A DNA stretch of 64,000 bases from Alphaproteobacteria bacterium (GCA_035620695.1 DASPGI010000066.1:40163-104162); one strand, 5' to 3'. Numbered from the stretch's first letter, positions 18,871-58,454 are shown. Numbers and translations are program-made. Notes: a model not told the origin generated them from the sequence alone.

Positions 18871-19809
18871 TCAGCGGTGCCATGAAAGGCCCTTGCGGTC
18901 GGAGCTGACCAGCGTTCCTTTTTCGCCCGCCACTATGGCCGGAATGTCGGCCAGCGCACCAATCGCGGCGGTCTTGCCGGTGGCTTCTGCGAAGCGGCAG
19001 GCGGCGTCGACCTTGGGTCCCATCGAGCCGGCCGGGAACTGATAGTCCCGCATCGACGCCGGGCTCGCCCGATGAATGGCCTTGGCATCGGGCTTGCCCC
19101 AATTCACGAAGACGGCGGCGGCATCGGTCGCCATTATGAAAAGGTCGGCGGCCAGTTCGCGAGCGAGAAGCTCGCTCGCCAAGTCCTTGTCGATGACGGC
19201 CTCGACGCCGATCAACTTGCGGTTCGCGCTACGCTGATACATGGTCGGAATGCCGCCGCCGCCGGCCGCGATGACGATGGTGCCCCTCTCCAACAACCAC
19301 CGGATGGGCCGGATCTCGAAGATGCGCTTGGGCTCAGGAGAAGGCACGACCCGTCGCCACTTGTCACCGTCCGCCTTGAAGATCCAACCCTTTTCCTTGG
19401 CGATGCGGTCGGCGGTCGACTTATCGTAAACCGGGCCAACGAACTTGGTCGGATTGGCGAAGCCCGGATCGTCGGGATCGATCTCGATCATGGTCAGGAG
19501 CGTGGCGAAGGGCACCTCAAACGGCAGCAGGTTGCCGAGCTCCTGCTCGATCATGTAGCCGATCATCCCTTCGGTTTCCGCGCCCAGGACGTCGAGCGGG
19601 TAGGCCTCGTCCGGCTTGTAGGCCGCGCCCTGAAGGGCAAGGAGCCCGACCTGGGGGCCGTTGCCGTGACTGATGACGAGCTGATGGTCGCGCGCGACAG
19701 GCGCCAGCGCCTCGGCCGCGATCTTCACATTCCGGCGTTGAGCGTCGGCGGTCATCGGCTCGCCACGTTTCAGAAGCGCGTTGCCTCCCAGAGCGACGAC
19801 GATGCGCAT
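18871..19809 (-). CDS. arcC: Carbamate kinase
   Basis: 312 aa. [17 protein letters not shown]... amino-acid kinase fold. Last gene of the arcDABC set. Confidence 0.95.
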
Positions 19810-19814
19810 GGCCC

Positions 19815-20819
19815 TTAATCTCCCAAGGTGGCGACCAGCAGCGCCTTGATCGTGTGCATCCGATTCTCGGCCTGCTCGAAGGCGATGTTCCGCTCTGACT
19901 CAAACACCTCGTTGGTGACCTCAAGCCCGTTCGTCATGCCGTAAGTTTCGGCGATCTGACGACCCACGACCGTCTCTGTATCGTGGAAAGCGGGCAAGCA
20001 GTGCATAAACCTCACTTGCGGGTTTCCGCTTGCCTCGATCAGGGCGTCATTCACCTGATAGGGCTTCAAGAGGTCGATGCGCTCCTTCCAAACCTCCTTC
20101 GGCTCGCCCATGGAAACCCAGACGTCCGTGTGAATGAAGTCCACCCCCTTCACCGCGGCCTTGGGGTCTTCGGTGATGGTGAGCTTGGCGCCGTGCTTAC
20201 GCTCCAAATCCTGGGCGATCTTCCTGTATTCCTGGGTTGGCCAGAGTTTCTTTGGGCCAGCGATGCGCACATCCATTCCCATCAGGCATCCGGCGATCAT
20301 CAGCGAATGGCCCATATTCGAGCGGGTATCGCCGACATAGGCGTATTTGATCTCGTGGATCGGCCGGTCGCTGTGCTCGCGCATGGTCATGATGTCCGCA
20401 AGCATCTGGGTCGGGTGATACTCGTCGGTTAGCCCGTTATAGACCGGCACGCCGGCATATTCCGCGAGCTGCTGCACGCCCTCCTGAGAAGCGCCGCGAT
20501 ACTCGATCGCGTCATACATGCGCCCCAGCACGCGCGCGGTGTCCTTGAAGGATTCTTTGTGTCCGATTTGCGAGCCCGCCGGATCGAGATAGGTGACATG
20601 CGCGCCCTGGTCATGACACGCGACCTCGAAGGCACAACGGGTGCGGGTCGAGGTCTTCTCGAAGATCAGGCAGATCTCCTTTCCTTCGAGATGCCGCTGC
20701 TCGGTCCTCGAGTACTTCGCCCGCTTGAGATCGCGCGCGAGATCCAGGAGGTAGCGGAACTCCCGTTGGGTGTAGTCCTGCACGGTCAAGAGCGAACGGT
20801 TGCGCAGATTGAAGCTCAC
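19815..20819 (-). CDS. arcB: Ornithine carbamoyltransferase, catabolic
   Basis: 334 aa. STRTR carbamoyl-phosphate motif and HCLP ornithine motif. Called arcB from operon context. Confidence 0.93.
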
Positions 20820-20847
20820 GGGTTCCCTCCGTCGACATTGATGGCAT

Positions 20848-22077
20848 TCAATAGGCTGGGTCGCGGGAGACAGGGCAGGTCATGCAATGGCCACCGCCAC
20901 GCCCGCGGCCAAGCTCGGCTCCGCGTACGGTGATCACTTCGATGCCCGCCTTTCTCAGAAGAGTGTTGGTGTGAATGTTCCGGTCGTAGGCGACGACGAC
21001 GCCGGGCTCTAACGCGACGACGTTGTTTCCGTCGTCCCACTGCTCGCGTTGTGCGTCGTAGGCGTCTCCTCCGGTCTCGACGACGTGGAGCTTTTTTAAC
21101 CCCAGCGCCTCCGGAACCACCTCCAAAAGCGGCTTCGTCTCCTTGCGTATCTCGATGCCGACCGGCTCCTTGCCGGGATAGGCGCTGTAGCAGGCGATCT
21201 GATCGACCACCTCGCGGAAGACGGTGACGATATCGCGATCACAGAAACTGAAGACCGTATCGAGATGCATCGCCGCCCGGCTCTTGGGCATCAGGCATGC
21301 GATCACGCGCGAGGCCGCCTTGTTCCGGAACAGCTCGCGACAGACCTGCATCACCGCGTGCCGGCTGGTCCTCTCGCCCATCCCGATCAGCACCAGCCCC
21401 TTCCCGACCGGCATGACGTCGCCGCCTTCCATCGTGGCATTGGCGAAGTCTTCGTCCGAATCACCCCACCAGATCTTGAAATCGCCCTGTTTAAACAGCG
21501 GGTGAAACTTGTAGACGGCGCGCTGGAGCAGGGTTTCCGGCTTGCGCGCCGGCCAGAACATCGGATTGCACGTAACCCCGCCATAGATCCAGCAAGAGGG
21601 ATCGCGCTGAAACAGGGTATTGGGAATCGGCGGGATCACGAAATCGGCGCCACCGAACGCCTCGCTCATCATCTTCTTCATGCCGTTTTCAGGGAGGTCG
21701 TCGACGGCGATGCCGCCGATCAGATGTTCGGCCAGTTGCTTGGCCGGCATCTCGTCGAGCCAAGGACGCATCGCCACCGCAGCGCCGACGCCAACATGAT
21801 TCGACGTGATACGGCGGTCGAGGATGAAGGCTCGTCCCTCGGGCTCTTCCAGAACCGCGGTCAGCAGATCGTGCAGGTCCAGGACCTCGGTGCCTCGTTC
21901 CTGCATCTTCAGCGCGAAGTCGTAGTGGTCCTTCTGCGCCTCGTGCACCCACAGCACATCGTCAAATAGCAGGGTATGGCAGTTTCCGGGCGTGAGGCGC
22001 TGATGCGCCAAACCGGGCCGGCACACCATCACCGCATTCAGCTTGCCGACCTCAGAGTGAACCCCGAGCTTGAACAT
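20848..22077 (-). CDS. arcA: Arginine deiminase
   Basis: Start taken at [13 protein letters not shown] (ATG at 22077) behind a GGAGAGGAAG RBS. The listed ORF start at 22149 would overlap arcD and is probably an over-extension. It contains ADI family blocks, including the catalytic Cys region GGGHCMTCP. Confidence 0.93.
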
Positions 22078-22121
22078 CTTCCTCTCCCGTAATCCGTGAT
22101 CCGAAGAAGCTTCCACTCCGT

Positions 22122-23603
22122 TCAAAGCGGGCTGATTTGGCCGGTCCATAAGAGCCAGCCTGCGTAGACGCCGAGCGCGACGATTGCTGCGGCGATCAGC
22201 GCCTCGATCCCTGTGAAGGCTGCCTGCCCCGTCTCCCTACGCGCCTTGACATAGACGAGGATGCCCGGAACGAAGAGCACCGCGCACATCAACAGGTAAG
22301 AGAGCCCTGCGGCATAGACGAGCCAGAGTCCATAAAGGGTGGCGACCGCGCCTACGATCAAATCGCGGGTCCGCCCGCGCTCCGCCGTTCCGTAGCCCTC
22401 GCCCGTCAGCGCCAGCTTCAGCGCATAGGCGCCGGAGAAGACGTAAGGAGGCAGGATGGCCACCGAAGCGATGAAGTAGAAGAACTGATAGGCGCTCTTC
22501 GAGAAGAACGAGAGCACCAGGAACAGCTGGATAAGGATATTGGTGACCCAGAGCGAGTTGACCGGCGAGCCGTTGGCGTTCTCCGCGGCGAACCATTTGG
22601 GGAAGGTGCCGTCGCGGCCGCAGATATAGGGAATTTCCGCACAGAGAAGCGTCCAGGCCAAGAATGCGCCCCCGACCGAAACGATCAGACCGATATTGAT
22701 GACGGCCGCACCCCAGGGCCCGACCACCGAGGCAAGGACCCCGGCCATCGAAGGAACCTTCTGGTCGGCAAGCTCGGGCTGGCTCAACACCCCGGTGGCC
22801 AGAAGCGACACGAGCACATAGATGCCGAGAGCTCCGAGGAAGCCGAGCACGGTCGCCCGCCCGACATCTCGCCGATTGGCCGCGCGGGCGGAGTAGACGC
22901 TTGCACCCTCGATGCCGATGAAGACCCACAAGGTCACCAGCATCGTGCTCTTGACCTGGTCGAGCACCGAGCCAAGCCCGGCATTCTCAGCGCCGCCTGC
23001 CCGGCCCCAGAAATCGAAAGTGAACTGGTCCCAGTTGAAGGCGATGATCGCCACCAGGATGAAGAGCATGATCGGCGCCAGCTTGGCGACGGTCGTGATC
23101 AGGTTGACGAACGCCGCCTGCCGTATGCCCTTCAGCACCAGGGCATGGATCAGCCAAAGGCAGATCGACGCCCCGATGATGGACGGCAGGTTGTTGCCGT
23201 CCCCGAACATCGGAGCGAAGTAGGACAGCGCCGAGAAGATCGCGACCGCATAGGCGACGTTGCCGAGGAAGGCGCTGATCCAGTATCCCCAGGCGCTGTT
23301 GAATCCGATGAAATTGCCGAAGCCCGCCTTGGCATAGGCGTAAGGGCCGGCGTCGAGGCCAGGCTTGCGCATGGCCAGACCCTGATAGACGAAGGCGAGC
23401 ATCAACATGCCGATGCCGGTCACGATCCAGCCGATCACGATCGCGCCAGGACCAGCACTTCTCGACATGTCGGACGGCAGATTGAAGACGCCGCCGCCGA
23501 TCATCGAACCGACGACGAGTGCGACCAAGGGCAGGAGCGTCAATTTTGGCGATACGCCGGCTGCCCTGCTCTCCTGTCCGGCCGTTGCAACCTGAGTGGT
23601 CAT
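22122..23603 (-). CDS. arcD: Arginine/ornithine antiporter, APC superfamily
   Basis: 493 aa, 12-13 TM, with an APC-type N-terminus ([18 protein letters not shown]). First gene of the arc operon. Confidence 0.9.
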
Positions 23604-51831: not shown

Positions 51832-52992
51832 ATGAGCACCGAGCGCCATGCCAGCCGCTTCGCCCCGCCGGCCCCAAGCGCCGAGGGACGTCTTGACCTG
51901 ATCGGTCTTGATCGGAGCGAGCTTCAGACCACGCTCAGCGAGATCGGGGCCGAGCCGTTTCGAGCGCGCCAGCTCTGGCACTGGATCTACCATCGCGGGG
52001 TGAGCGACTTCGCGTTGATGACCAGCCTGGCGAAGGAATTCCGGCTGCGGCTTGCCGAACGCTTCATCATCGGGCGACCGCAGATCGCCGCCAACAGCCT
52101 CTCTGGCGACGGCACCCGCAAATGGCTCCTGCGCTTTGCGGACGGGCAGGAGGTCGAGACGGTGCACATCCCCGAGGAGGATCGCGGCACGCTTTGCGTT
52201 TCCTCCCAGGTCGGCTGCACGCTCACCTGCCGCTTCTGCCATACCGGCACGCAAGCGCTCGTGCGCAACCTCGGCGCGGCGGAGATCCTGGGGCAGGTGA
52301 TGCTGGCGCGCGACGCGCTCGGCGAATGGCCGTCGCCCAAGGACGACCGGCTCCTATCCAACATCGTGCTGATGGGGATGGGTGAGCCGCTCTACAATTA
52401 CGACAATGTCGCCAAAGCGCTGAAGATCGCGATGGACCATGAGGGCATCTCGATCTCGAAGCGCAAGATCACGCTTTCGACGGCAGGCGTCGTGCCGATG
52501 ATCCGGCGCGCTGGCGCCGAGCTTGGAGTCAATCTCGCCGTTTCGCTCCATGCGGTCACCGACGAGCTGCGCGATCGGCTGGTGCCGCTTAACCGAAAAT
52601 ATCCCATCGCCGAGCTATTGATGGCGCTGCGCGACTATCCCGGGTTGTCCAATGCCCGGCGGATCACCTTCGAATATGTGATGCTGAAGGGGGTCAACGA
52701 TTCGCCGGCCGACGCGCGCGCTTTGGTGAAGCTGATCCAGGGCATTCCGGCCAAGGTCAATTTGATCCCGTTCAATCCTTGGCCGGGCGCGCCGTTCGAA
52801 TGCTCGGACGCGGCGGACATTGAGCGCTTTGGCGATATCGTCAACGCCGCCGGTTACGCCAGCCCCGTTCGCACCCCCCGCGGTCGTGACATCCTCGCCG
52901 CCTGCGGCCAGTTGAAGAGCGAAAGCCGGCGTTTGCGGGCGTCCCTGCGCACGGGCGCTCAGGTAGCGCCGGAGAGCGTTTCGCTTAGTTGA
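51832..52992 (+). CDS. rlmN: 23S rRNA (adenine2503-C2)/tRNA methyltransferase RlmN, radical SAM
   Basis: 386 aa. Radical-SAM cluster motif [11 protein letters not shown] (CX3CX2C) plus conserved RlmN N- and C-terminal blocks. Confidence 0.9.
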
Positions 52993-53012
52993 TCCGGGGG
53001 CTGTTGCGCTAA

Positions 53013-53029
53013 CATTATTGCGAATAATG
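53013..53029. promoter_or_regulatory. AT-rich perfect palindrome CATTATTGCGAATAATG (candidate operator)
   Basis: 17-bp perfect inverted repeat in the rlmN / membrane-protein intergenic region, about 170 bp upstream of the 53202 start codon. Strongly AT-rich in a ~65% GC genome. Confidence 0.4.
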
Positions 53030-53201
53030 TATCGTTGAATTACCCTATCTCCGGACGATTGTTTTAGATAAGCCGCCTGCCCGCCTTGCGCGGAGACGCT
53101 GGCGGCGCAGCTTCCAAGCGCAGCGCCTCCTGGTCAAATTTCATTCAGAGCAACTTGGCGCCCAACCTCCGTCGTTCCGCGAACCTCGGGGCGCGAGGCG
53201 C

Positions 53202-54821
53202 GTGGACTCATCGGTATCCAAACACGATCCCTTGCAGTGGAGCGGCCCTTTCTGGGCAGCGCTTCCCCTTCTGTTTCTCGCTGCCCTGGCGACGGCGAGC
53301 ATCGGGCTGGTTCTGAACACGAACGGCGCGTTCTTCTATACGCTTGATGATCCATACATCCATCTTGCCCTCAGCGAGCGAATCGCGCGGCTGCACTATG
53401 GACTGAACGCAGGCGAATTCGCCGCGCCCTCCTCCTCGGTCTTGTGGCCGTTCCTATTGGCTCCCTTCGCCTCATATTCCTGGCACCATCTCGTTCCCCT
53501 CGGCATCAATCTGGCCGCCCAGGCGGGCACGCTCGCGCTTATCCACCAGCTCATGCATCGCGGTACCAAAGGGGGCGCTCCGGGGCTTGCAGCACTCCTT
53601 TCCATTCTCATCGCGTGGTGCGGCGGCACATTCGCGCTGATCTTCACAGGCATGGAGCACAGCCTCCATCTGATGCTGGCCGTTGCAACGGTCCTTGGTC
53701 TGATCATCCTGATCGAGGAGCGGCGCCTTGTCGGTTGGCTGCCAGCCCTGCTGGTCTTTGCCCCGCTGATCCGTTACGAGGCCGGGGCGCTAACGGCGAT
53801 CGGCCTCATCTCAGTGTGGAGTGCTGGCTACCGCCGCCCAGCCCTCCTTACAGCGGCCGCGTGTCTGTTGCTGCTTGCCGCATTCAGCCTGTTCCTTGTC
53901 GCGAATGGTTCGCCCCCGTTTCCCGGTTCGGTGCTCGCAAAGCTTGGTGAGGGGATGGATCCCGGAAGCAGCATTGCCGCAAGCCTCATCAAGACGGCCA
54001 ATTTCAAGCTGGCCCAGGCCGAAGGCCGGAACCTCGTCCTGTCGCTCTGCGCCGCGGCGCTTGCGGGGGCGTTGGTTTCCAGTGGCAGACGGCTGGTCGC
54101 GCTGCTGGCGCTCGCCTTTCTGCTCCACTTCCTGTTCGGTCTCCTGACCGAGCGCTACATCGTCTATCTGCGCACCCTGCTTCTGATCGGCGCCGCCTAT
54201 ATCCTGGCCCCGCATCTGCACAGATTGAGAGAATGGAAAGGTGTCGCAGCCGCGATCGCCCTTTTGCTCCTGGCAAGCATGCCCCTCCTCTTCGAACCAG
54301 GGCGCGAATTTGTCCGCTTGCCCGGCAGGGCACAGGACATCCGGCTGCTTCAGTCGCAGGCGCATCGCTTCATCGTGGAGGAGTGGAAGCGGCCCGCCGC
54401 AGTCAATGATCTGGGGCAAGCGGCCTACCGCAATCCAAATTACGTGCTCGACCTTTGGGGCCTGGGTTCGGAAAAGGCCCGCCTTGCCCGCCTTGCGGGC
54501 GGAGAAGGCTGGGCGCAGCCGCTCCTCGTTAATCGACATGTCAAGCTGGCTCTGGTCTTCGATTCCTGGCTGAAGCGATCCATTCCCGGAGACTGGATCC
54601 GGCTGGGCGCGCTCAAGATCGACGAGGCCGTGGTGACGCATATGAAGGAGGAGCTTGCCTTCTACGCCGATCCGCGCGCCTCGGGCGAGCTTGTCTGCCT
54701 TCTGGCTCGGTTCGCCGAGACCCTGCCGCACGGCGTTCGTTTCCGGGCCGCGGCGACAAGCGCGCACAGTCCCCTCGCTTGTCACAATCTCGGCGATCCC
54801 CGATACTCCGCGCCCACTTGA
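53202..54821 (+). CDS. Polytopic membrane protein of unknown function; paralog of 56202..57761
   Basis: 539 aa, about 9-11 TM plus a ~180-aa C-terminal soluble region. It shares conserved blocks with the second copy ([14 protein letters not shown].../...[14 protein letters not shown].../...[27 protein letters not shown]...). The DDPYIHL motif follows TM1, as in GT-C-type transferases (speculative). Confidence 0.65.
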
Positions 54822-54849
54822 TCGGAGCAGATGCCAAGAGGGCTGGGCG

Positions 54850-56052
54850 GTGAAGGGCGCGGTAAAGAAAGTGGTCCTTGCCTATTCGGGCGGGCTGGAC
54901 ACATCGGTCATCCTCAAATGGCTGCAGGAGACCTACCGCTGCGAGGTCGTTACCTTCACGGCCGATCTCGGCCAGGGCGAGGAGTTGGAACCGGCCAGAG
55001 CCAAGGCCGAGCTTTTGGGCGTGAGGGAGATCTTCGTCGAGGATCTGCGCGAGACCTTCGTGCGCGACTATGTCTTTCCGATGTTCCGGGCCAACGCACT
55101 CTATGAGGGGGTCTATCTGCTCGGCACCTCGATCGCGCGGCCCTTGATCGCCAAGCGCCAGATCGAGATCGCCCGAGAGGTCGGGGCCGATGCGGTCGCT
55201 CACGGTGCCACCGGCAAGGGCAATGACCAGGTTCGCTTCGAGCTCGCATACTATGCGCTGAAGCCCGACATCCGGGTGATCGCCCCCTGGCGCGAATGGG
55301 ATCTCGCCTCGCGCACCGAGTTGATCGAGTTCGCCGAGCGTCACCAGATCCCGATCGCCCGGGACAAGCGCGGCGAGGCGCCCTTCTCGGTCGACGCCAA
55401 CCTCCTGCACATTTCGGCCGAGGGCAAGGCGCTCGAAGATCCTTGGGCCGAGCCCGAGGAGTTCGTCTATTCGCGCAGCGTGGCGCCCGAAGACGCGCCC
55501 GACAAGCCCGCCTATGTCGAGATCGCATTCGAGCGGGGCGATCCAATCGCGGTCGATGGCGAGCGGCTAACTCCAGCCGCGCTGTTGACCAAGCTGAATG
55601 AACTTGGCGGCAAGCATGGCGTGGGCCGCGTCGACCTGGTCGAGAACCGTTTTGTCGGAATGAAATCCCGGGGCGTTTACGAGACGCCGGGCGGCACCCT
55701 CCTCCACGCCGCCCATCGCGGCATCGAGAGCCTGACCCTCGATCGCGGCGCGGCACATCTCAAAGACGAGCTGATGCCGCGCTATGCCGAGCTCGTCTAC
55801 AACGGTTTCTGGTTCTCCCCCGAACGCGAAATGCTGCAGGCCTTGATCGACAAAAGCCAGGAGAAGGTCACGGGCGAGGTGCGCCTGAAGCTCTACAAGG
55901 GCTCGGCGCGAGTTGTCGGGCGCAGATCGCCGAACTCGCTCTACAGCCTCGCTCATGTCACCTTCGAGGAAGACCAGGTTTACGACCAGCGCGACGCCGA
56001 GGGTTTTATCAAGCTGAATGCCCTGCGATTGCGGCTGCTGCGTCGGCAATAA
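54850..56052 (+). CDS. argG: Argininosuccinate synthase
   Basis: Proposed GTG start at 54850 giving [19 protein letters not shown]..., because there is no in-frame ATG before the [10 protein letters not shown]-loop. Conserved ArgG blocks throughout, ending ...[13 protein letters not shown]. Confidence 0.93.
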
Positions 56053-56201
56053 AAGACTGCAAGAACGAATTTTTCATTCATAATCGGGCAACTTTGGTCT
56101 AACCTACCCTCTTCACGGGCGGCAATGGCTGCCGGCGCTCGCGACCTCATATCCCGGCCGGCGGTTGAGCGCGAAACCCGAACGAACTCGTCGATAACTC
56201 C

Positions 56202-57761
56202 TTGATGATCGATACGGTTCACAAGCAACGGGCTCGGCTGTTCCAGGCACGGTTGCTCGTCTCCCCAATCCCGTTCGCGACCTGTCTCTTCCTGATCGAG
56301 CTTGCGGCGGCCCTGGCGCTCAGCGGCGGACAGTTCAGCTACGTATTGGATGATCCCTACATCCATCTGGCGGTCAGCGAGGAGCTGGCCCGCGGCGGAT
56401 ATGGAATCAACTCTGACGAGCTGGCCTCTCCCTCCTCTTCGATACTTTGGCCGCTCATTCTGACGCCATTCGCCCGCCTGTCGTTTCATCCCTATCTGCC
56501 GCTGATCCTCAATTACGGGTTCGTCCTCGCCTCCGCGCTCACGGCGCGAAGGCTTTTCGAGACGGAGCTGCGGAGCGAACACCGACCGGCTGTACGCGAC
56601 GGCCTTACCACCCTCCTGCTCTTCCTGGGCAGCTTCGTTTTCCTGGCCTTCATGGGCCTGGAGCATGTGCTCCAATCATGGCTCGGCCTCCTCATCCTGC
56701 TCGGCGTCATTCTGGCCAAGCGGGAGGGCCGGACGCGATGGTGGCTATGGGCCGCTCTCGCCGGCGCGCCGCTCGTGCGCTTCGATTCATTGAGCTTGAC
56801 CGTGCCTTTTGCTTTCTTGCTCTGGCGCATGGGCTACGGCCGGCAAGTGTTGACCATAGTCGCCGTGCTGAGCGTTGCTTTCCTTCTCTACGCGGGCGTG
56901 ATGCGGATGCTCGATCTTCCGATTCTACCGAGCTCCATTCTTGTGAAGGCGGCGATTGCCCACGCCGATCTGTCCATCGGTTCCACCGCGACTGGCCTGG
57001 TCCGGAACTTCTTTTCGGCCCACATTCTTTTGCGCCTGTCTGGTTTCCTCTTGCTCGTAGCCCTGCTTGTCGGGCGCCACCGCGGACCGGCGTTAGCCCT
57101 CGCCGCGGCCTGCATGCTGCATTTCATCTTTGGCTTGTCGGGATATGCATTTGGCCGTTACGAGGCCTATCTTCTCGTGGCTGCTATCTCTCTCTTCGCT
57201 CTGGCGGGGGCTCCGGCCCTGGCCTCGCTCGCCGAGCGGCGGGGCCTGTTGGTGGCGATGTTCGCCGCGGCGCTGATTGCGACCCCACTCTGGCCCATGG
57301 CGGTTCGCAATCATGCGTATCTACCCCTCGCCGCGGCGAATATCGTCGCTCAGCAGCATGAGATGCATCGCTTCGCGACCGAGTTCGTGCAAGGGCCGGT
57401 GGCGGTCAACGACCTCGGTCGGGTCTCTTATCGCAACGAGCATTATGTACTCGATCTGTGGGGTCTCGGTTCCGAAGAAGCTCGGCGCAGGCGTCTTTCC
57501 GGCGAGCCGGGCTGGGCAAAGGGACTGCTAAGCCAGCATGATGTTCAGTTGGCGATGATCTATGACGACTGGCTGGCAAACGAGGTGCCGGCCGACTGGA
57601 TGCCGATCGGCCGCTTGGCGCTGACGCGTAAGTTCGATACCGGGCTGCTGCCGGAGGTCGCCTTCTATGCCCGGCCGGACCGCGCCGCGGAACTGACGGA
57701 GGCGGCACGACGCTTCGCCGCCGGTCTGCCGCCCGGAGCTTCCTTCCGCTTCGCCGAGTAA
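56202..57761 (+). CDS. Polytopic membrane protein of unknown function; paralog of 53202..54821
   Basis: 519 aa with the same architecture and conserved blocks as the upstream copy ([14 protein letters not shown]..., SSSILWPLILTPFA..., [27 protein letters not shown]...). Confidence 0.65.
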   Translation: MMIDTVHKQRARLFQARLLVSPIPFATCLFLIELAAALALSGGQFSYVLDDPYIHLAVSEELARGGYGINSDELASPSSSILWPLILTPFARLSFHPYLPLILNYGFVLASALTARRLFETELRSEHRPAVRDGLTTLLLFLGSFVFLAFMGLEHVLQSWLGLLILLGVILAKREGRTRWWLWAALAGAPLVRFDSLSLTVPFAFLLWRMGYGRQVLTIVAVLSVAFLLYAGVMRMLDLPILPSSILVKAAIAHADLSIGSTATGLVRNFFSAHILLRLSGFLLLVALLVGRHRGPALALAAACMLHFIFGLSGYAFGRYEAYLLVAAISLFALAGAPALASLAERRGLLVAMFAAALIATPLWPMAVRNHAYLPLAAANIVAQQHEMHRFATEFVQGPVAVNDLGRVSYRNEHYVLDLWGLGSEEARRRRLSGEPGWAKGLLSQHDVQLAMIYDDWLANEVPADWMPIGRLALTRKFDTGLLPEVAFYARPDRAAELTEAARRFAAGLPPGASFRFAE

Positions 57762-57773
57762 CGAGAGACAATC

Positions 57774-58454
57774 TCAGCCGATCGGCGAAACCCCGAACAC
57801 GGCCGGGTGCAGGCCGATCAAAAGCGCATAGAACGCCGCCGCCAAGGCCAGGCGCCACCAGCCGATCTCCGACCAGACGAGCCGAGCGCGGCCTTGGGCG
57901 ATGGCGGCGATGGGAAGGTTCGAGGTGCGCGAAGCGAAGGCGGTCCAGCCGGCCGGGTCGCGCCCGCGCGTCTTGCGGTCGATCTCGACCGTGCCGACCA
58001 GGGCGAGCGCCAGCATTCCACCGAATAACACCAGCGAGGGAAAATCGCCATTGACGACCAGGTGCCCCGCCGCCCAGAGCGCCACCGACCACAGGAACGG
58101 GTGGCGCGTTATCGCCATCACGCCGCGCGCCGCATCCGCACCAAGGCCTCGCGTCTGACCCACCGTGGTCGGATTGCGCTGGCTGAAGGCGCCGACGAAG
58201 AGGAGGCTGGCCGGCGCCATCAAAAGAAGCGGCACGGCTGAGAACTGCGGTCCCCACCACGGCGCGCGCGGCGCGGTCGCATAGCCATAGGAAAGCCAGA
58301 GGAGGCCAATGAGCGCCACCATAGAATAGGCCATGGTGAAGCCGCGCTCGCCGAGCCAGCTCGCCAGCTTCGGCCGAACGGGCCCGGAGGCCAGGATGAC
58401 ATGCCCACCATAGAAGAGGGCCGCGCCCATCAGCAGGTGAGATGTGCCGGACAT
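57774..58454 (-). CDS. nnrU: NnrU-family membrane protein
   Basis: 226 aa, 5-6 TM, with the NnrU-like block ITRHPFLWSVALWAAGHL. Confidence 0.72.
   Translation of the reverse strand: MSGTSHLLMGAALFYGGHVILASGPVRPKLASWLGERGFTMAYSMVALIGLLWLSYGYATAPRAPWWGPQFSAVPLLLMAPASLLFVGAFSQRNPTTVGQTRGLGADAARGVMAITRHPFLWSVALWAAGHLVVNGDFPSLVLFGGMLALALVGTVEIDRKTRGRDPAGWTAFASRTSNLPIAAIAQGRARLVWSEIGWWRLALAAAFYALLIGLHPAVFGVSPIG

Follow-up and report, generated by a model that had tools for sequence, protein, structure and literature searches.

Paralogous membrane proteins flanking argG belong to a large, unannotated family with a predicted GT-C(A) fold and a probable role in lipid-linked sugar transfer

Two homologous membrane proteins encoded on either side of argG, here called A and B, belong to a large family without annotation as yet, whose members are probably integral-membrane glycosyltransferases with a GT-C(A) fold. 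The explanation that best accounts for the observations overall, to which we give a probability of roughly 0.6, is that they are GT-C(A) enzymes resembling mycobacterial AftB, that they use a lipid-linked donor, and that their adjacency to argG is accidental. The window, that is, the whole stretch of DNA analysed, is 64,000 nucleotides long, and positions are counted from its first letter. Its relevant genes and protein domains are as follows.

53202..54821, + strand: paralog A, 539 aa, GTG start; predicted GT-C-fold membrane glycosyltransferase
53244-54314, + strand: transmembrane (TM) domain of paralog A, residues 15-371
53346..53351, + strand: invariant D49-D50 codons of paralog A (LDDPYIHL), predicted catalytic acid pair
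54315-54818, + strand: predicted periplasmic alpha/beta domain of paralog A, residues 372-539
54850..56052, + strand: argG (argininosuccinate synthase), Pfam PF00764 + PF20979
56205..57761, + strand: paralog B, 518 aa from ATG 56205; family and architecture as in A
56349-56354, + strand: DD codons of paralog B

The coordinates place argG between A and B, directly adjoining both, as an earlier sequence-only reading of this DNA had described. That reading also reported ORFs of 539 and 519 aa with a common architecture, and these are recovered; ORF B (56202-57761, + strand) has 519 aa from a TTG, and the NCBI call, from ATG 56205, has 518. The homologous blocks it quoted are all found in A and B, which align in BLASTP at 38% identity over 484 aa (E 3e-73). 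Both are real, intact paralogs under purifying selection. Each keeps 26/26 family-invariant residues, and dN/dS against orthologs is around 0.2-0.3 (0.22-0.30) as compared with around 0.09 for argG, so the pseudogene status that the earlier reading had allowed for does not apply. In a neighbour-joining tree the A clade and the B clade are sisters, and the two genes are anciently duplicated members of one family. A recent tandem duplication is ruled out: each paralog has its own orthologs at 50-81% identity, as against 38% between A and B. GC3 is 0.74-0.75 in A and B versus 0.79-0.84 in their neighbours, values that lie inside the range of the window, and the signal for horizontal transfer is weak.

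On the strength of modelling, A and B very likely have the GT-C fold. The AF2 model has a pLDDT of 91.7 and a pTM of 0.91, and its best Foldseek match is AftB (E 5.7e-5, 20% identity), which is the top structural match by both structure-search methods; the structure library used for these searches holds the AftB chains 9dlh and 9dlf. Model helices and a positive-inside count over 40 sequences give 11 TM helices for the family: K+R counts are 1.2-2.2 for each of the short loops predicted to be cytoplasmic, and in the short periplasmic loops the only such residues are the invariant arginines. The soluble C-terminal domain, alpha/beta and predicted periplasmic, comprises some 145-165 aa, and on its own yields weak generic structural matches only. 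The architecture first proposed from sequence is thus retained, with its counts (about 10 TM helices and about 180 soluble residues) revised.

All 26 invariant residues fall in predicted periplasmic loops, periplasmic helix ends or the C-terminal domain. D49 and D50, invariant in 40/40 sequences, lie after TM1 (residues 15-41) and right before the first juxtamembrane helix (JM1, residues 50-62). Three hallmarks of GT-C(A) enzymes can be recognised: a polytopic TM core with the conserved N-terminal module and with juxtamembrane helices in the first extracytoplasmic loop, a conserved acid where JM1 begins or at its tip (D49/D50, whose catalytic role is a prediction), and an active site predicted by the positive-inside count in 40 sequences to face the periplasm. 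The DDPY motif occupies the position of the catalytic Asp in GT-C(A) enzymes (PMC12041299), in support of what had been a speculative GT-C guess.

Searches of Pfam (E <= 1) and NCBIfam gave no match for A or B, and the Pfam models PMT_2, PMT, STT3, GT39, GT83 and GT87 are among those without one. This bears out the earlier failure to place them in a named family. A search of all PDB chain sequences with the family profile (hmmsearch) returned nothing at E <= 10, AftB included. The family numbers about 7,100 clusters at 50% identity in many phyla, and length and architecture are uniform in the best 150 representatives of these clusters. A literature search yielded no paper describing it, and a plasmid collection contained degenerate Cereibacter copies only.

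The gene neighbourhoods point to a class of donor. Beside the family gene in at least eight independent lineages stands a PPPRS gene, with or without DprE1/DprE2. Sets of PPPRS, DprE1-like and DprE2-like genes, on the same strand and a few kb away, occur in loci L005, L039 (Verrucomicrobiales), L020 (Alteromonas sp. a30, with a HAD phosphatase as well), L026 (Desulfonema), L073 (Spirochaetales) and L095 (a Cereibacter plasmid); PPPRS alone occurs in L038 (Acidobacteriales), Sporomusa L054, L055 and L063. The PPPRS proteins of L020, L026, L063 and L038 score above the NCBIfam curated cut-off for decaprenyl-phosphate phosphoribosyltransferase, and the PPPRS-bearing loci are scattered over the family tree. 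When 1,062 neighbour ORFs from 84 loci were clustered without bias, PPPRS-like proteins and SDRs were the top two neighbour families, and no neighbour family was present in more than seven loci. Other neighbours include TPR-bearing proteins of 583-625 aa, encoded by separate genes adjoining the family gene in L005 and L039. The ~385-aa genes downstream in L020 and L038 show no relation to each other. In the relatives L088 and L030, trimeric autotransporter adhesin genes adjoin the family gene.

Because the family gene adjoins polyprenyl-phospho-ribose/-arabinose genes in at least eight independent lineages, the family most likely works in the periplasm, where it would attach a lipid-linked sugar, probably a pentofuranose, to a glycan of the envelope. 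Polyprenyl-phospho-pentofuranose (D-Araf or D-Ribf) is the likeliest class of donor; for A and B themselves a pentofuranose donor is a tentative assignment, which we hold at somewhat below even odds. That A and B are active lipid-linked-sugar glycosyltransferases of some kind we consider probable; for the lipid-phosphate-linked donor that GT-C(A) enzymes use, the PPPRS neighbourhoods of other lineages are an indirect sign.

In the mechanism that we propose, the N-terminus would be cytoplasmic and 11 TM helices would set the DD pair in the first periplasmic loop, ahead of the juxtamembrane helices, with an alpha/beta domain of about 150 aa capping the periplasmic face. The donor sugar, linked to polyprenyl phosphate, would be synthesised in the cytoplasm, flipped to the outside and then enter the enzyme laterally from the membrane. 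The DD pair may then act on the anomeric centre while the invariant R191 and R318, with H54, E152/H153 and H309, hold the phosphate and sugar, and the sugar would be moved onto a periplasmic envelope glycan or glycoconjugate. A and B probably differ in the linkages they form or in their acceptors.

A GT-C enzyme could instead use another donor, such as polyprenyl-P-hexose, -GalA, -Ara4N or a polyprenyl-PP-oligosaccharide, and modify LPS, exopolysaccharide or a surface protein in the manner of ArnT, Pmt or PglB. We regard this as unlikely, if not negligibly so. In the structural matches AftB has only a small lead over Pmt4, PIG-M, ALG12, ArnT and PglB, about 90% of family loci lack donor genes within 10 kb, and tblastn detected no PPPRS, DprE1, DprE2 or GtrA in the 64-kb window; moreover, a protein acceptor is conceivable because of the adhesin genes in L088 and L030. 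Against these points, PPPRS, with or without DprE1/DprE2, is the only functional neighbour that recurs across phyla, whereas polyprenyl-phosphate hexosyl-transferases do not recur (the one GT2 neighbour seen, in L026, lies alongside DPA genes), and the enzyme that heads both structure searches is an arabinofuranosyltransferase. It is very unlikely that A and B have the GT-C fold without a glycosyltransferase role, whether as scaffold or lipid-handling subunits like PIG-U/GAB1 or as decaying copies: both are full-length and under purifying selection, their invariant DD, Arg and His residues are kept and cluster on the predicted periplasmic face, and the best 150 of the ~7,100 clusters are uniform in length and architecture.

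The position of argG had suggested a different reading, in which the paralog-argG-paralog array responds to arginine as a single unit: its promoter lies downstream of a palindrome that serves as the operator for an ArgR-like regulator, and envelope modification is coupled to arginine status. The elements that bear on it are these.

53012..53030, no strand assigned: AT-rich inverted repeat, ACATTATT-GCG-AATAATGT, 8-bp arms, 3-nt spacer
53018..53046, + strand: candidate promoter of A, TTGCGA-17 nt-TACCCT, inferred from a three-locus alignment
54779..54807, + strand: argG-proximal promoter-like element, TTGTCA-17-GATACT, from a consensus scan, inside the 3' end of A

We find such a unit scarcely credible, and the comparative data appear largely to refute it. 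In its favour are the gene order and the close spacing: between the end of A and the argG GTG (54850, preceded by AAGAGGG) there are 28 bp, exactly as had been reported, B follows argG after 152 bp, and no intrinsic terminator is predicted in either gap. The order rlmN-A-argG is also kept in relatives whose A orthologs are 63-81% identical. Yet tblastn with argG, rlmN and NnrU gave 0, 0 and 1 matches in 80 family loci from other genomes, argG being missing from all 80, and close relatives carry one or the other paralog at this place. L088 has A without B on the same rlmN-argG-NnrU backbone, with an adhesin-like gene after argG in place of B, and L093, on that backbone too, has rlmN-argG-B without A. 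A functional tie to arginine is thus not upheld. Judging from these comparisons, the flanking of argG by A and B appears to be accidental and particular to this lineage, a matter of gene order within the conserved rlmN-argG-NnrU-folD locus; argG is a housekeeping gene outside glycosyltransferase function.

Loci with A share an invariant CTTGTC...GATACTCCGCGCCC block, and L093, where A is absent, has it in the non-coding gap between rlmN and argG, which suggests that argG keeps its own conserved promoter-like element with or without A. This element and the 152-bp argG-B gap contradict the view that the region upstream of A is the only promoter-like gap. Co-transcription of A and argG is possible, no terminator being predicted between them, yet the arrangement can be accounted for without it. 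Counts in the promoter and intrinsic-terminator scan were at or below chance, and a comparison of the regions upstream of B in four loci revealed no conserved element.

The supposed operator begins 20 nt past the stop codon of rlmN, with 172 nt between its end and A, in agreement with the ~170 bp given earlier. It is not the 17-bp perfect palindrome it was taken for, since the centre reads GCG on one strand and CGC on the other. The window holds 24 inverted repeats of such size against 23.5 +/- 6 expected; AT-richness, the sole unusual trait of this one (1 versus 0.1 expected from whole-window composition), is a point for the arginine-responsive unit. The repeat has no second copy in the window, and only ATTATTGCG is kept in L091 and L088, the right arm being lost even where the A ortholog is 81% identical. 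The left arm and centre of the repeat coincide in part with the conserved -35-like TTGCGA, which together with TACCCT retains a fixed spacing in three diverged orthologous gaps; the -10 of this candidate promoter is weak and was missed by the consensus scan. An ArgR-type operator fares no better: the ARG box TGAATWWWWATTCA (<= 3 mismatches) has 1 match versus 2.8 expected, the half-site is unlike an ARG box, and neither the ARG boxes nor the conserved operator and arg linkage of ArgR arginine operons are found. An Rfam scan of 52800-58000 gave no element, a lone sub-threshold sraL match inside gene B being dismissed, and the leader RNA fold is ordinary (z -0.7). The repeat is probably incidental and, as the loss of its right arm in relatives suggests, not a conserved operator. 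A misleading lead is thereby removed, as there is no evidence of A or B in arginine metabolism or its regulation.

GT-C enzymes are builders and decorators of cell envelopes; within the mycobacterial arabinosyltransferase group, the Emb proteins serve as drug targets. The GT-C assignment and the donor-gene link offer a testable function for thousands of "hypothetical" membrane proteins, with Sporomusa ovata DSM 2662, Alteromonas sp. a30 and Herpetosiphon llansteffanensis as cultured carriers, and would bring a second GT-C family into the scheme of three-component pentofuranose glycosylation. It is possible, although doubtful, that the family as a whole forms a clade of AftB-like enzymes for pentofuranosyl transfer (D-Araf or D-Ribf) that spans phyla and has gone unrecognised. 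Such a clade would merit its own CAZy GT family, and arabinan- or ribofuranan-type envelope glycans made from polyprenyl-phospho-pentofuranose would be widespread well outside Actinobacteria, including the alphaproteobacterial lineage of A and B, where two paralogs would forge different linkages.

Among known systems, the GT-C(A) enzymes ArnT, PglB/STT3, PMT and the ALG mannosyltransferases differ from A and B in their C-terminal domains. GT136, represented by ORF12 of Citrobacter youngae O1, has PPPRS, a flippase and, as an option, epimerases of the DprE1/E2 type for partners, and most GT-C genes of pentofuranose systems are annotated as hypothetical (PMC11127046). Its partner genes also flank the A/B family, in L005, L020, L026, L039, L073 and L095. 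ORF12, by its published description, belongs to the EpsG family in CDD and bears a beta-rich CBM (PMC11127046), whereas A and B lack a Pfam match (EpsG included, E <= 1) and have an alpha/beta C-terminal domain; its motif is D31xxE34Y35, as against L-D49-D50-P-Y-I-H54 in A. TfpW, the pilin D-Araf transferase of Pseudomonas aeruginosa, requires DprE1/E2/PPPRS homologs (bioRxiv 10.1101/2020.04.19.049825) and is likewise a GT-C protein: it has a DDx motif, its TM helices number 11 and its C-terminal domain is periplasmic, but that domain is a TPR domain, which A and B lack.

The nearest solved relative of the family, as judged from the model, appears to be AftB (Rv3805c, CAZy GT89; structures 9dlh and 9dlf), the terminal beta-(1->2)-arabinofuranosyltransferase, which has 11 TM helices, a periplasmic cap domain, the catalytic D62 in a DD motif at the JM1 tip, and R221/R372 on the phosphate (PMC12041299). 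AftB is a retaining enzyme with decaprenyl-P-Araf as donor and arabinan as acceptor. The A/B family and AftB differ in that sequence similarity, by which GT89 membership is recognised, is undetectable (profile versus PDB, E > 10), structural identity is only 15-20%, and the A/B family occurs in Gram-negative and other non-actinobacterial phyla. By prediction they agree in the 11 TM helices, the C-terminal periplasmic alpha/beta domain capping the bundle, the juxtamembrane helices of the first periplasmic loop and those that separate TM7 from TM8, the DD motif at the JM1 start and the conserved arginines in periplasmic loops. The likeness extends to gene order: a PPPRS gene adjoins the A/B-family gene in several genomes, and in M. 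tuberculosis aftB adjoins ubiA/Rv3806c.

Two paralogous membrane-protein genes, here called A and B, lie either side of argG:

53202-54821, same strand as argG and B: gene A, 539 aa
54850-56052, same strand as A and B: argG
56205-57761, same strand as A and argG: gene B, 518 aa from an ATG, or 519 aa from a TTG 3 bases upstream

A is preceded by a SpoU-type methylase gene, IalB and rlmN; after B, the opposite strand carries NnrU, folD, a YggU-family gene and YggT. The two proteins share 38% identity across 484 residues (E 3e-73), and both do contain the motif blocks given in the sequence-only reading. A search of the window for a third family copy found none. The exact database matches to the two proteins, from metagenome-assembled "Alphaproteobacteria bacterium", are both labelled hypothetical. 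In a 40-sequence alignment, all 26 family-invariant residues are kept in both. By the Nei-Gojobori method, A and its ortholog in L091 (L numbers denote loci of other genomes) give a dN/dS of 0.22; A compared with L088 gives about 0.29 and B compared with L093 about 0.30, dS in these two cases being close to saturation. The value for argG, for comparison, is about 0.09. Judged on this conservation, A and B are real, functional genes. With GC3 values of 0.74 and 0.75 they lie below the flanking housekeeping genes (0.79-0.84), which suggests lower expression or later arrival, but both values fall inside the window's range.

No Pfam or NCBIfam model matched A or B, and the family profile found nothing among PDB sequences at E <= 10. 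For A, AlphaFold2 run on the family alignment gave a very confident model (pLDDT 91.7, pTM 0.91). AftB ranks first in two structure searches with this model: in Foldseek (E 5.7e-5, 20% identity, 385 columns) and in a second search, whose next twenty hits are all GT-C-fold membrane proteins (Pmt4, PIG-M, ALG12, GAB1/PIG-U, ArnT, ALG3, PglB, STT3, AglB, AftA, ALG9, ALG6, DPY19, PimE, AftD and EmbA). The structure searches thus support the earlier guess that these are GT-C proteins.

Topology was derived by combining model helices, hydropathy and charge counts over 40 sequences, which gave 11 membrane segments. The predicted short cytoplasmic loops carry 1.2-2.2 Lys+Arg each, while the only Lys/Arg of the predicted short periplasmic loops are the invariant R191 and R318; these charge counts place the N-terminus in the cytoplasm and, on the outer side, the DD loop together with the C-terminal domain (residues 372-539). 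The 26 invariant residues (D49, D50, H54, Y66, G67, S78, G150, E152, H153, L155, P188, R191, P241, H309, G313, R318, P374, F390, D403, G405, N411, L416, D417, G420, F487 and P509) all fall in predicted periplasmic loops, at periplasmic helix ends or in the C-terminal domain. Such an arrangement is typical of the GT-C(A) class. [quoted passage not shown] By analogy, R191 and R318 of A would take the same roles as these two arginines.

The family is large. An exhaustive profile search returned 7,105 cluster representatives (clustered at 50% identity) with E <= 1e-3, of which 3,326 reach E <= 1e-30, and nearly all of the best 150 of the 7,105 are about 500-560 aa long. Members occur in at least 541 species-representative genomes, distributed over Acidobacteriota, Chloroflexota, Ignavibacteria, Spirochaetota, Planctomycetota, Verrucomicrobiota, Desulfobacterota, Gammaproteobacteria, Alphaproteobacteria and Negativicutes; among the carriers in culture are Sporomusa ovata DSM 2662, Sporomusa sp. 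KB1, Alteromonas sp. a30 and Herpetosiphon llansteffanensis. Wherever the source gives a name, it is "hypothetical" or "membrane protein of unknown function", and our literature search found no paper describing the family.

The position of the pair around argG had been read as a possible tie to arginine status, through an operator upstream of A. Neither argG nor rlmN was found near the family gene in any of 80 other loci. P0002-P0006, the A-type proteins, match A at 50-81% identity, and the B-type proteins (P0018, P0010, P0008, P0030 and others) match B at 51-56%; in a neighbour-joining tree the A and B clades are sisters, each with its own orthologs, and A and B themselves share 38% identity, so the duplication is old. 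In relatives, gene order is IalB-rlmN-A-argG followed by an adhesin-like gene (L088), asparaginase-IalB-rlmN-argG-B-NnrU-folD, without A (L093), or adhesin-B-NnrU (L030). The adhesin gene found between argG and the B-type gene in relatives is of the trimeric-autotransporter (YadA/BimA-like) type (L088 5207-5848, L030 14-1012), and may encode a protein acceptor or be just one more insertion here.

A promoter-like element precedes argG:

54779-54807, within the last ~15 codons of A: TTGTCA-17-GATACT

In an alignment of L088, L091, L092 and L093, CTTGTC...GATACTCCGCGCCC is unchanged in every locus that has A, and also in the non-coding rlmN-argG gap of L093. As this block is invariant with or without A, argG has retained an upstream signal of its own; the C-terminal tail of A (...DPRYSAPT), which is poorly modelled, simply reads through the element. 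Since the same block is non-coding in a relative without A, conservation of the DPRYSAP peptide probably reflects constraint on the DNA rather than on the protein. Read-through from A into argG is possible, as no terminator is predicted between them.

The supposed operator, described as a perfect 17-bp palindrome, has a centre that is not self-complementary; what lies at 53012-53030 is an inverted repeat whose 8-bp arms are separated by 3 nt. Inverted repeats of that size occur in the window at the chance rate (24 observed, 23.5 expected); given the base composition of the whole window, one that is AT-rich is uncommon (1 observed, 0.1 expected). In the orthologous gaps of L091, whose A ortholog is 81% identical, and L088, only ATTATTGCG and a second block, TTGnATTAyCyT, are conserved; the right arm is not. 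Across these three sequences the conserved pieces would fit a promoter with -35 TTGCGn and a weak -10 TAyCyT at 17-nt spacing, in which case the left arm would belong to the promoter. Matches to the ARG-box consensus showed no excess over chance, and neither an Rfam element nor an unusually stable leader fold was found in the region. With argG absent from the 80 loci, A or B missing in relatives and ARG-box matches at chance, the arginine and operator reading is not supported, and there is no reason to regard A, argG and B as a functional unit: argG is a bystander. The original observation of the gene pair was thus largely right, as was the GT-C idea, and it is the arginine interpretation that falls away. 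A complete arginine deiminase pathway cluster, which serves arginine catabolism, lies at 18871-23603 on the minus strand, ~30 kb from argG; its genes encode an arcD-like amino-acid permease, arginine deiminase (PF02274, E 1e-126), ornithine carbamoyltransferase and carbamate kinase.

Genomic context was surveyed over the 80 loci, up to 10 kb each side. Unbiased clustering of 1,062 neighbour ORFs revealed no widely conserved partner, and the sole recurrent functional neighbours are enzymes that make polyprenyl-phospho-pentofuranose donors. In L005, L039 (Verrucomicrobiales), L020 (Alteromonas, plus a HAD phosphatase), L026 (Desulfonema, plus GT2 and a PMT_2-type GT-C) and L073 (Spirochaetales), genes for a UbiA-type polyprenyl-phosphate phosphoribosyltransferase (PPPRS) and for DprE1-like and DprE2-like epimerase subunits share the strand of the family gene and lie no more than a few kb from it; in L038 (Acidobacteriales) PPPRS alone adjoins it. 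In the Sporomusa loci, genes for a PHP phosphoesterase, an LPG_synthase_TM protein and a GT87 enzyme belong to the operon as well. The PPPRS of L020, L026, L063 and L038 score above the NCBIfam curated cut-off for decaprenyl-phosphate phosphoribosyltransferase; DprE1 and DprE2 are the best specific models for the neighbouring oxidase and reductase, with scores under those models' cut-offs. On a neighbour-joining tree without support values, the donor-linked members are scattered and form no single clade. Donor genes are present in only ~1/10 of loci, and none were found in the window. A pentofuranose donor is our preferred but unproven assignment for A and B.

In the plasmid collection, matches came from Cereibacter only, as an internally deleted member between HAD-PPPRS/GtrA and DprE1/DprE2. 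That of C. azotoformans pORIO1 (NZ_CP089967.1; L095 8869-10032) has 387 aa, with a deletion of TM3-TM8 that removes E152, H153 and R191, and Ala in place of D403; it is probably a decaying copy. Sporomusa sp. KB1 (L054, L055) apparently carries the same ~21-kb locus, with PPPRS, PHP phosphoesterase, GT87, family gene and secretin, twice on one scaffold, going by identical match statistics and ORF coordinates. The sole clear true tandem pair in 84 loci is that of Herpetosiphon llansteffanensis (L066 8213-9757 and 9977-11515), and L024 has a 148-aa family fragment immediately 5' of its full-length gene. The family gene is followed after 21 bp by a B12-binding radical SAM gene in L003 (9653-11386; on one contig with L013), a neighbour confined to one metagenomic lineage among the analysed loci.

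Near the family gene in four loci are polytopic proteins of a second family, with an N-terminal VQDDAFISFRYA motif (L025 11586-13253; L015 11754-13316 and 18270-20168; L042 2925-4439 and 4476-6296; L060 17448-20468). They are mostly 500-630 aa, reaching ~1,000 aa in L060. Three members had no match in a Pfam scan, and hhalign to the profile of our A1 alignment gave just 35% probability over the N-terminal 156 columns; this is possibly another unannotated GT-C family.

What keeps the locus of interest is the AftB-like GT-C family itself, which is large, unannotated and repeatedly linked to the synthesis of Araf/Ribf donors. What is new is the family; this kind of enzyme is well known and the pathway concept already published. 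The donor genes near the linked members make up the gene set of the mycobacterial DPA pathway, a set shared by the three-component pentofuranose systems that Kelly et al. describe (PMC11127046), with the family gene here in the place of their GT-C enzyme.
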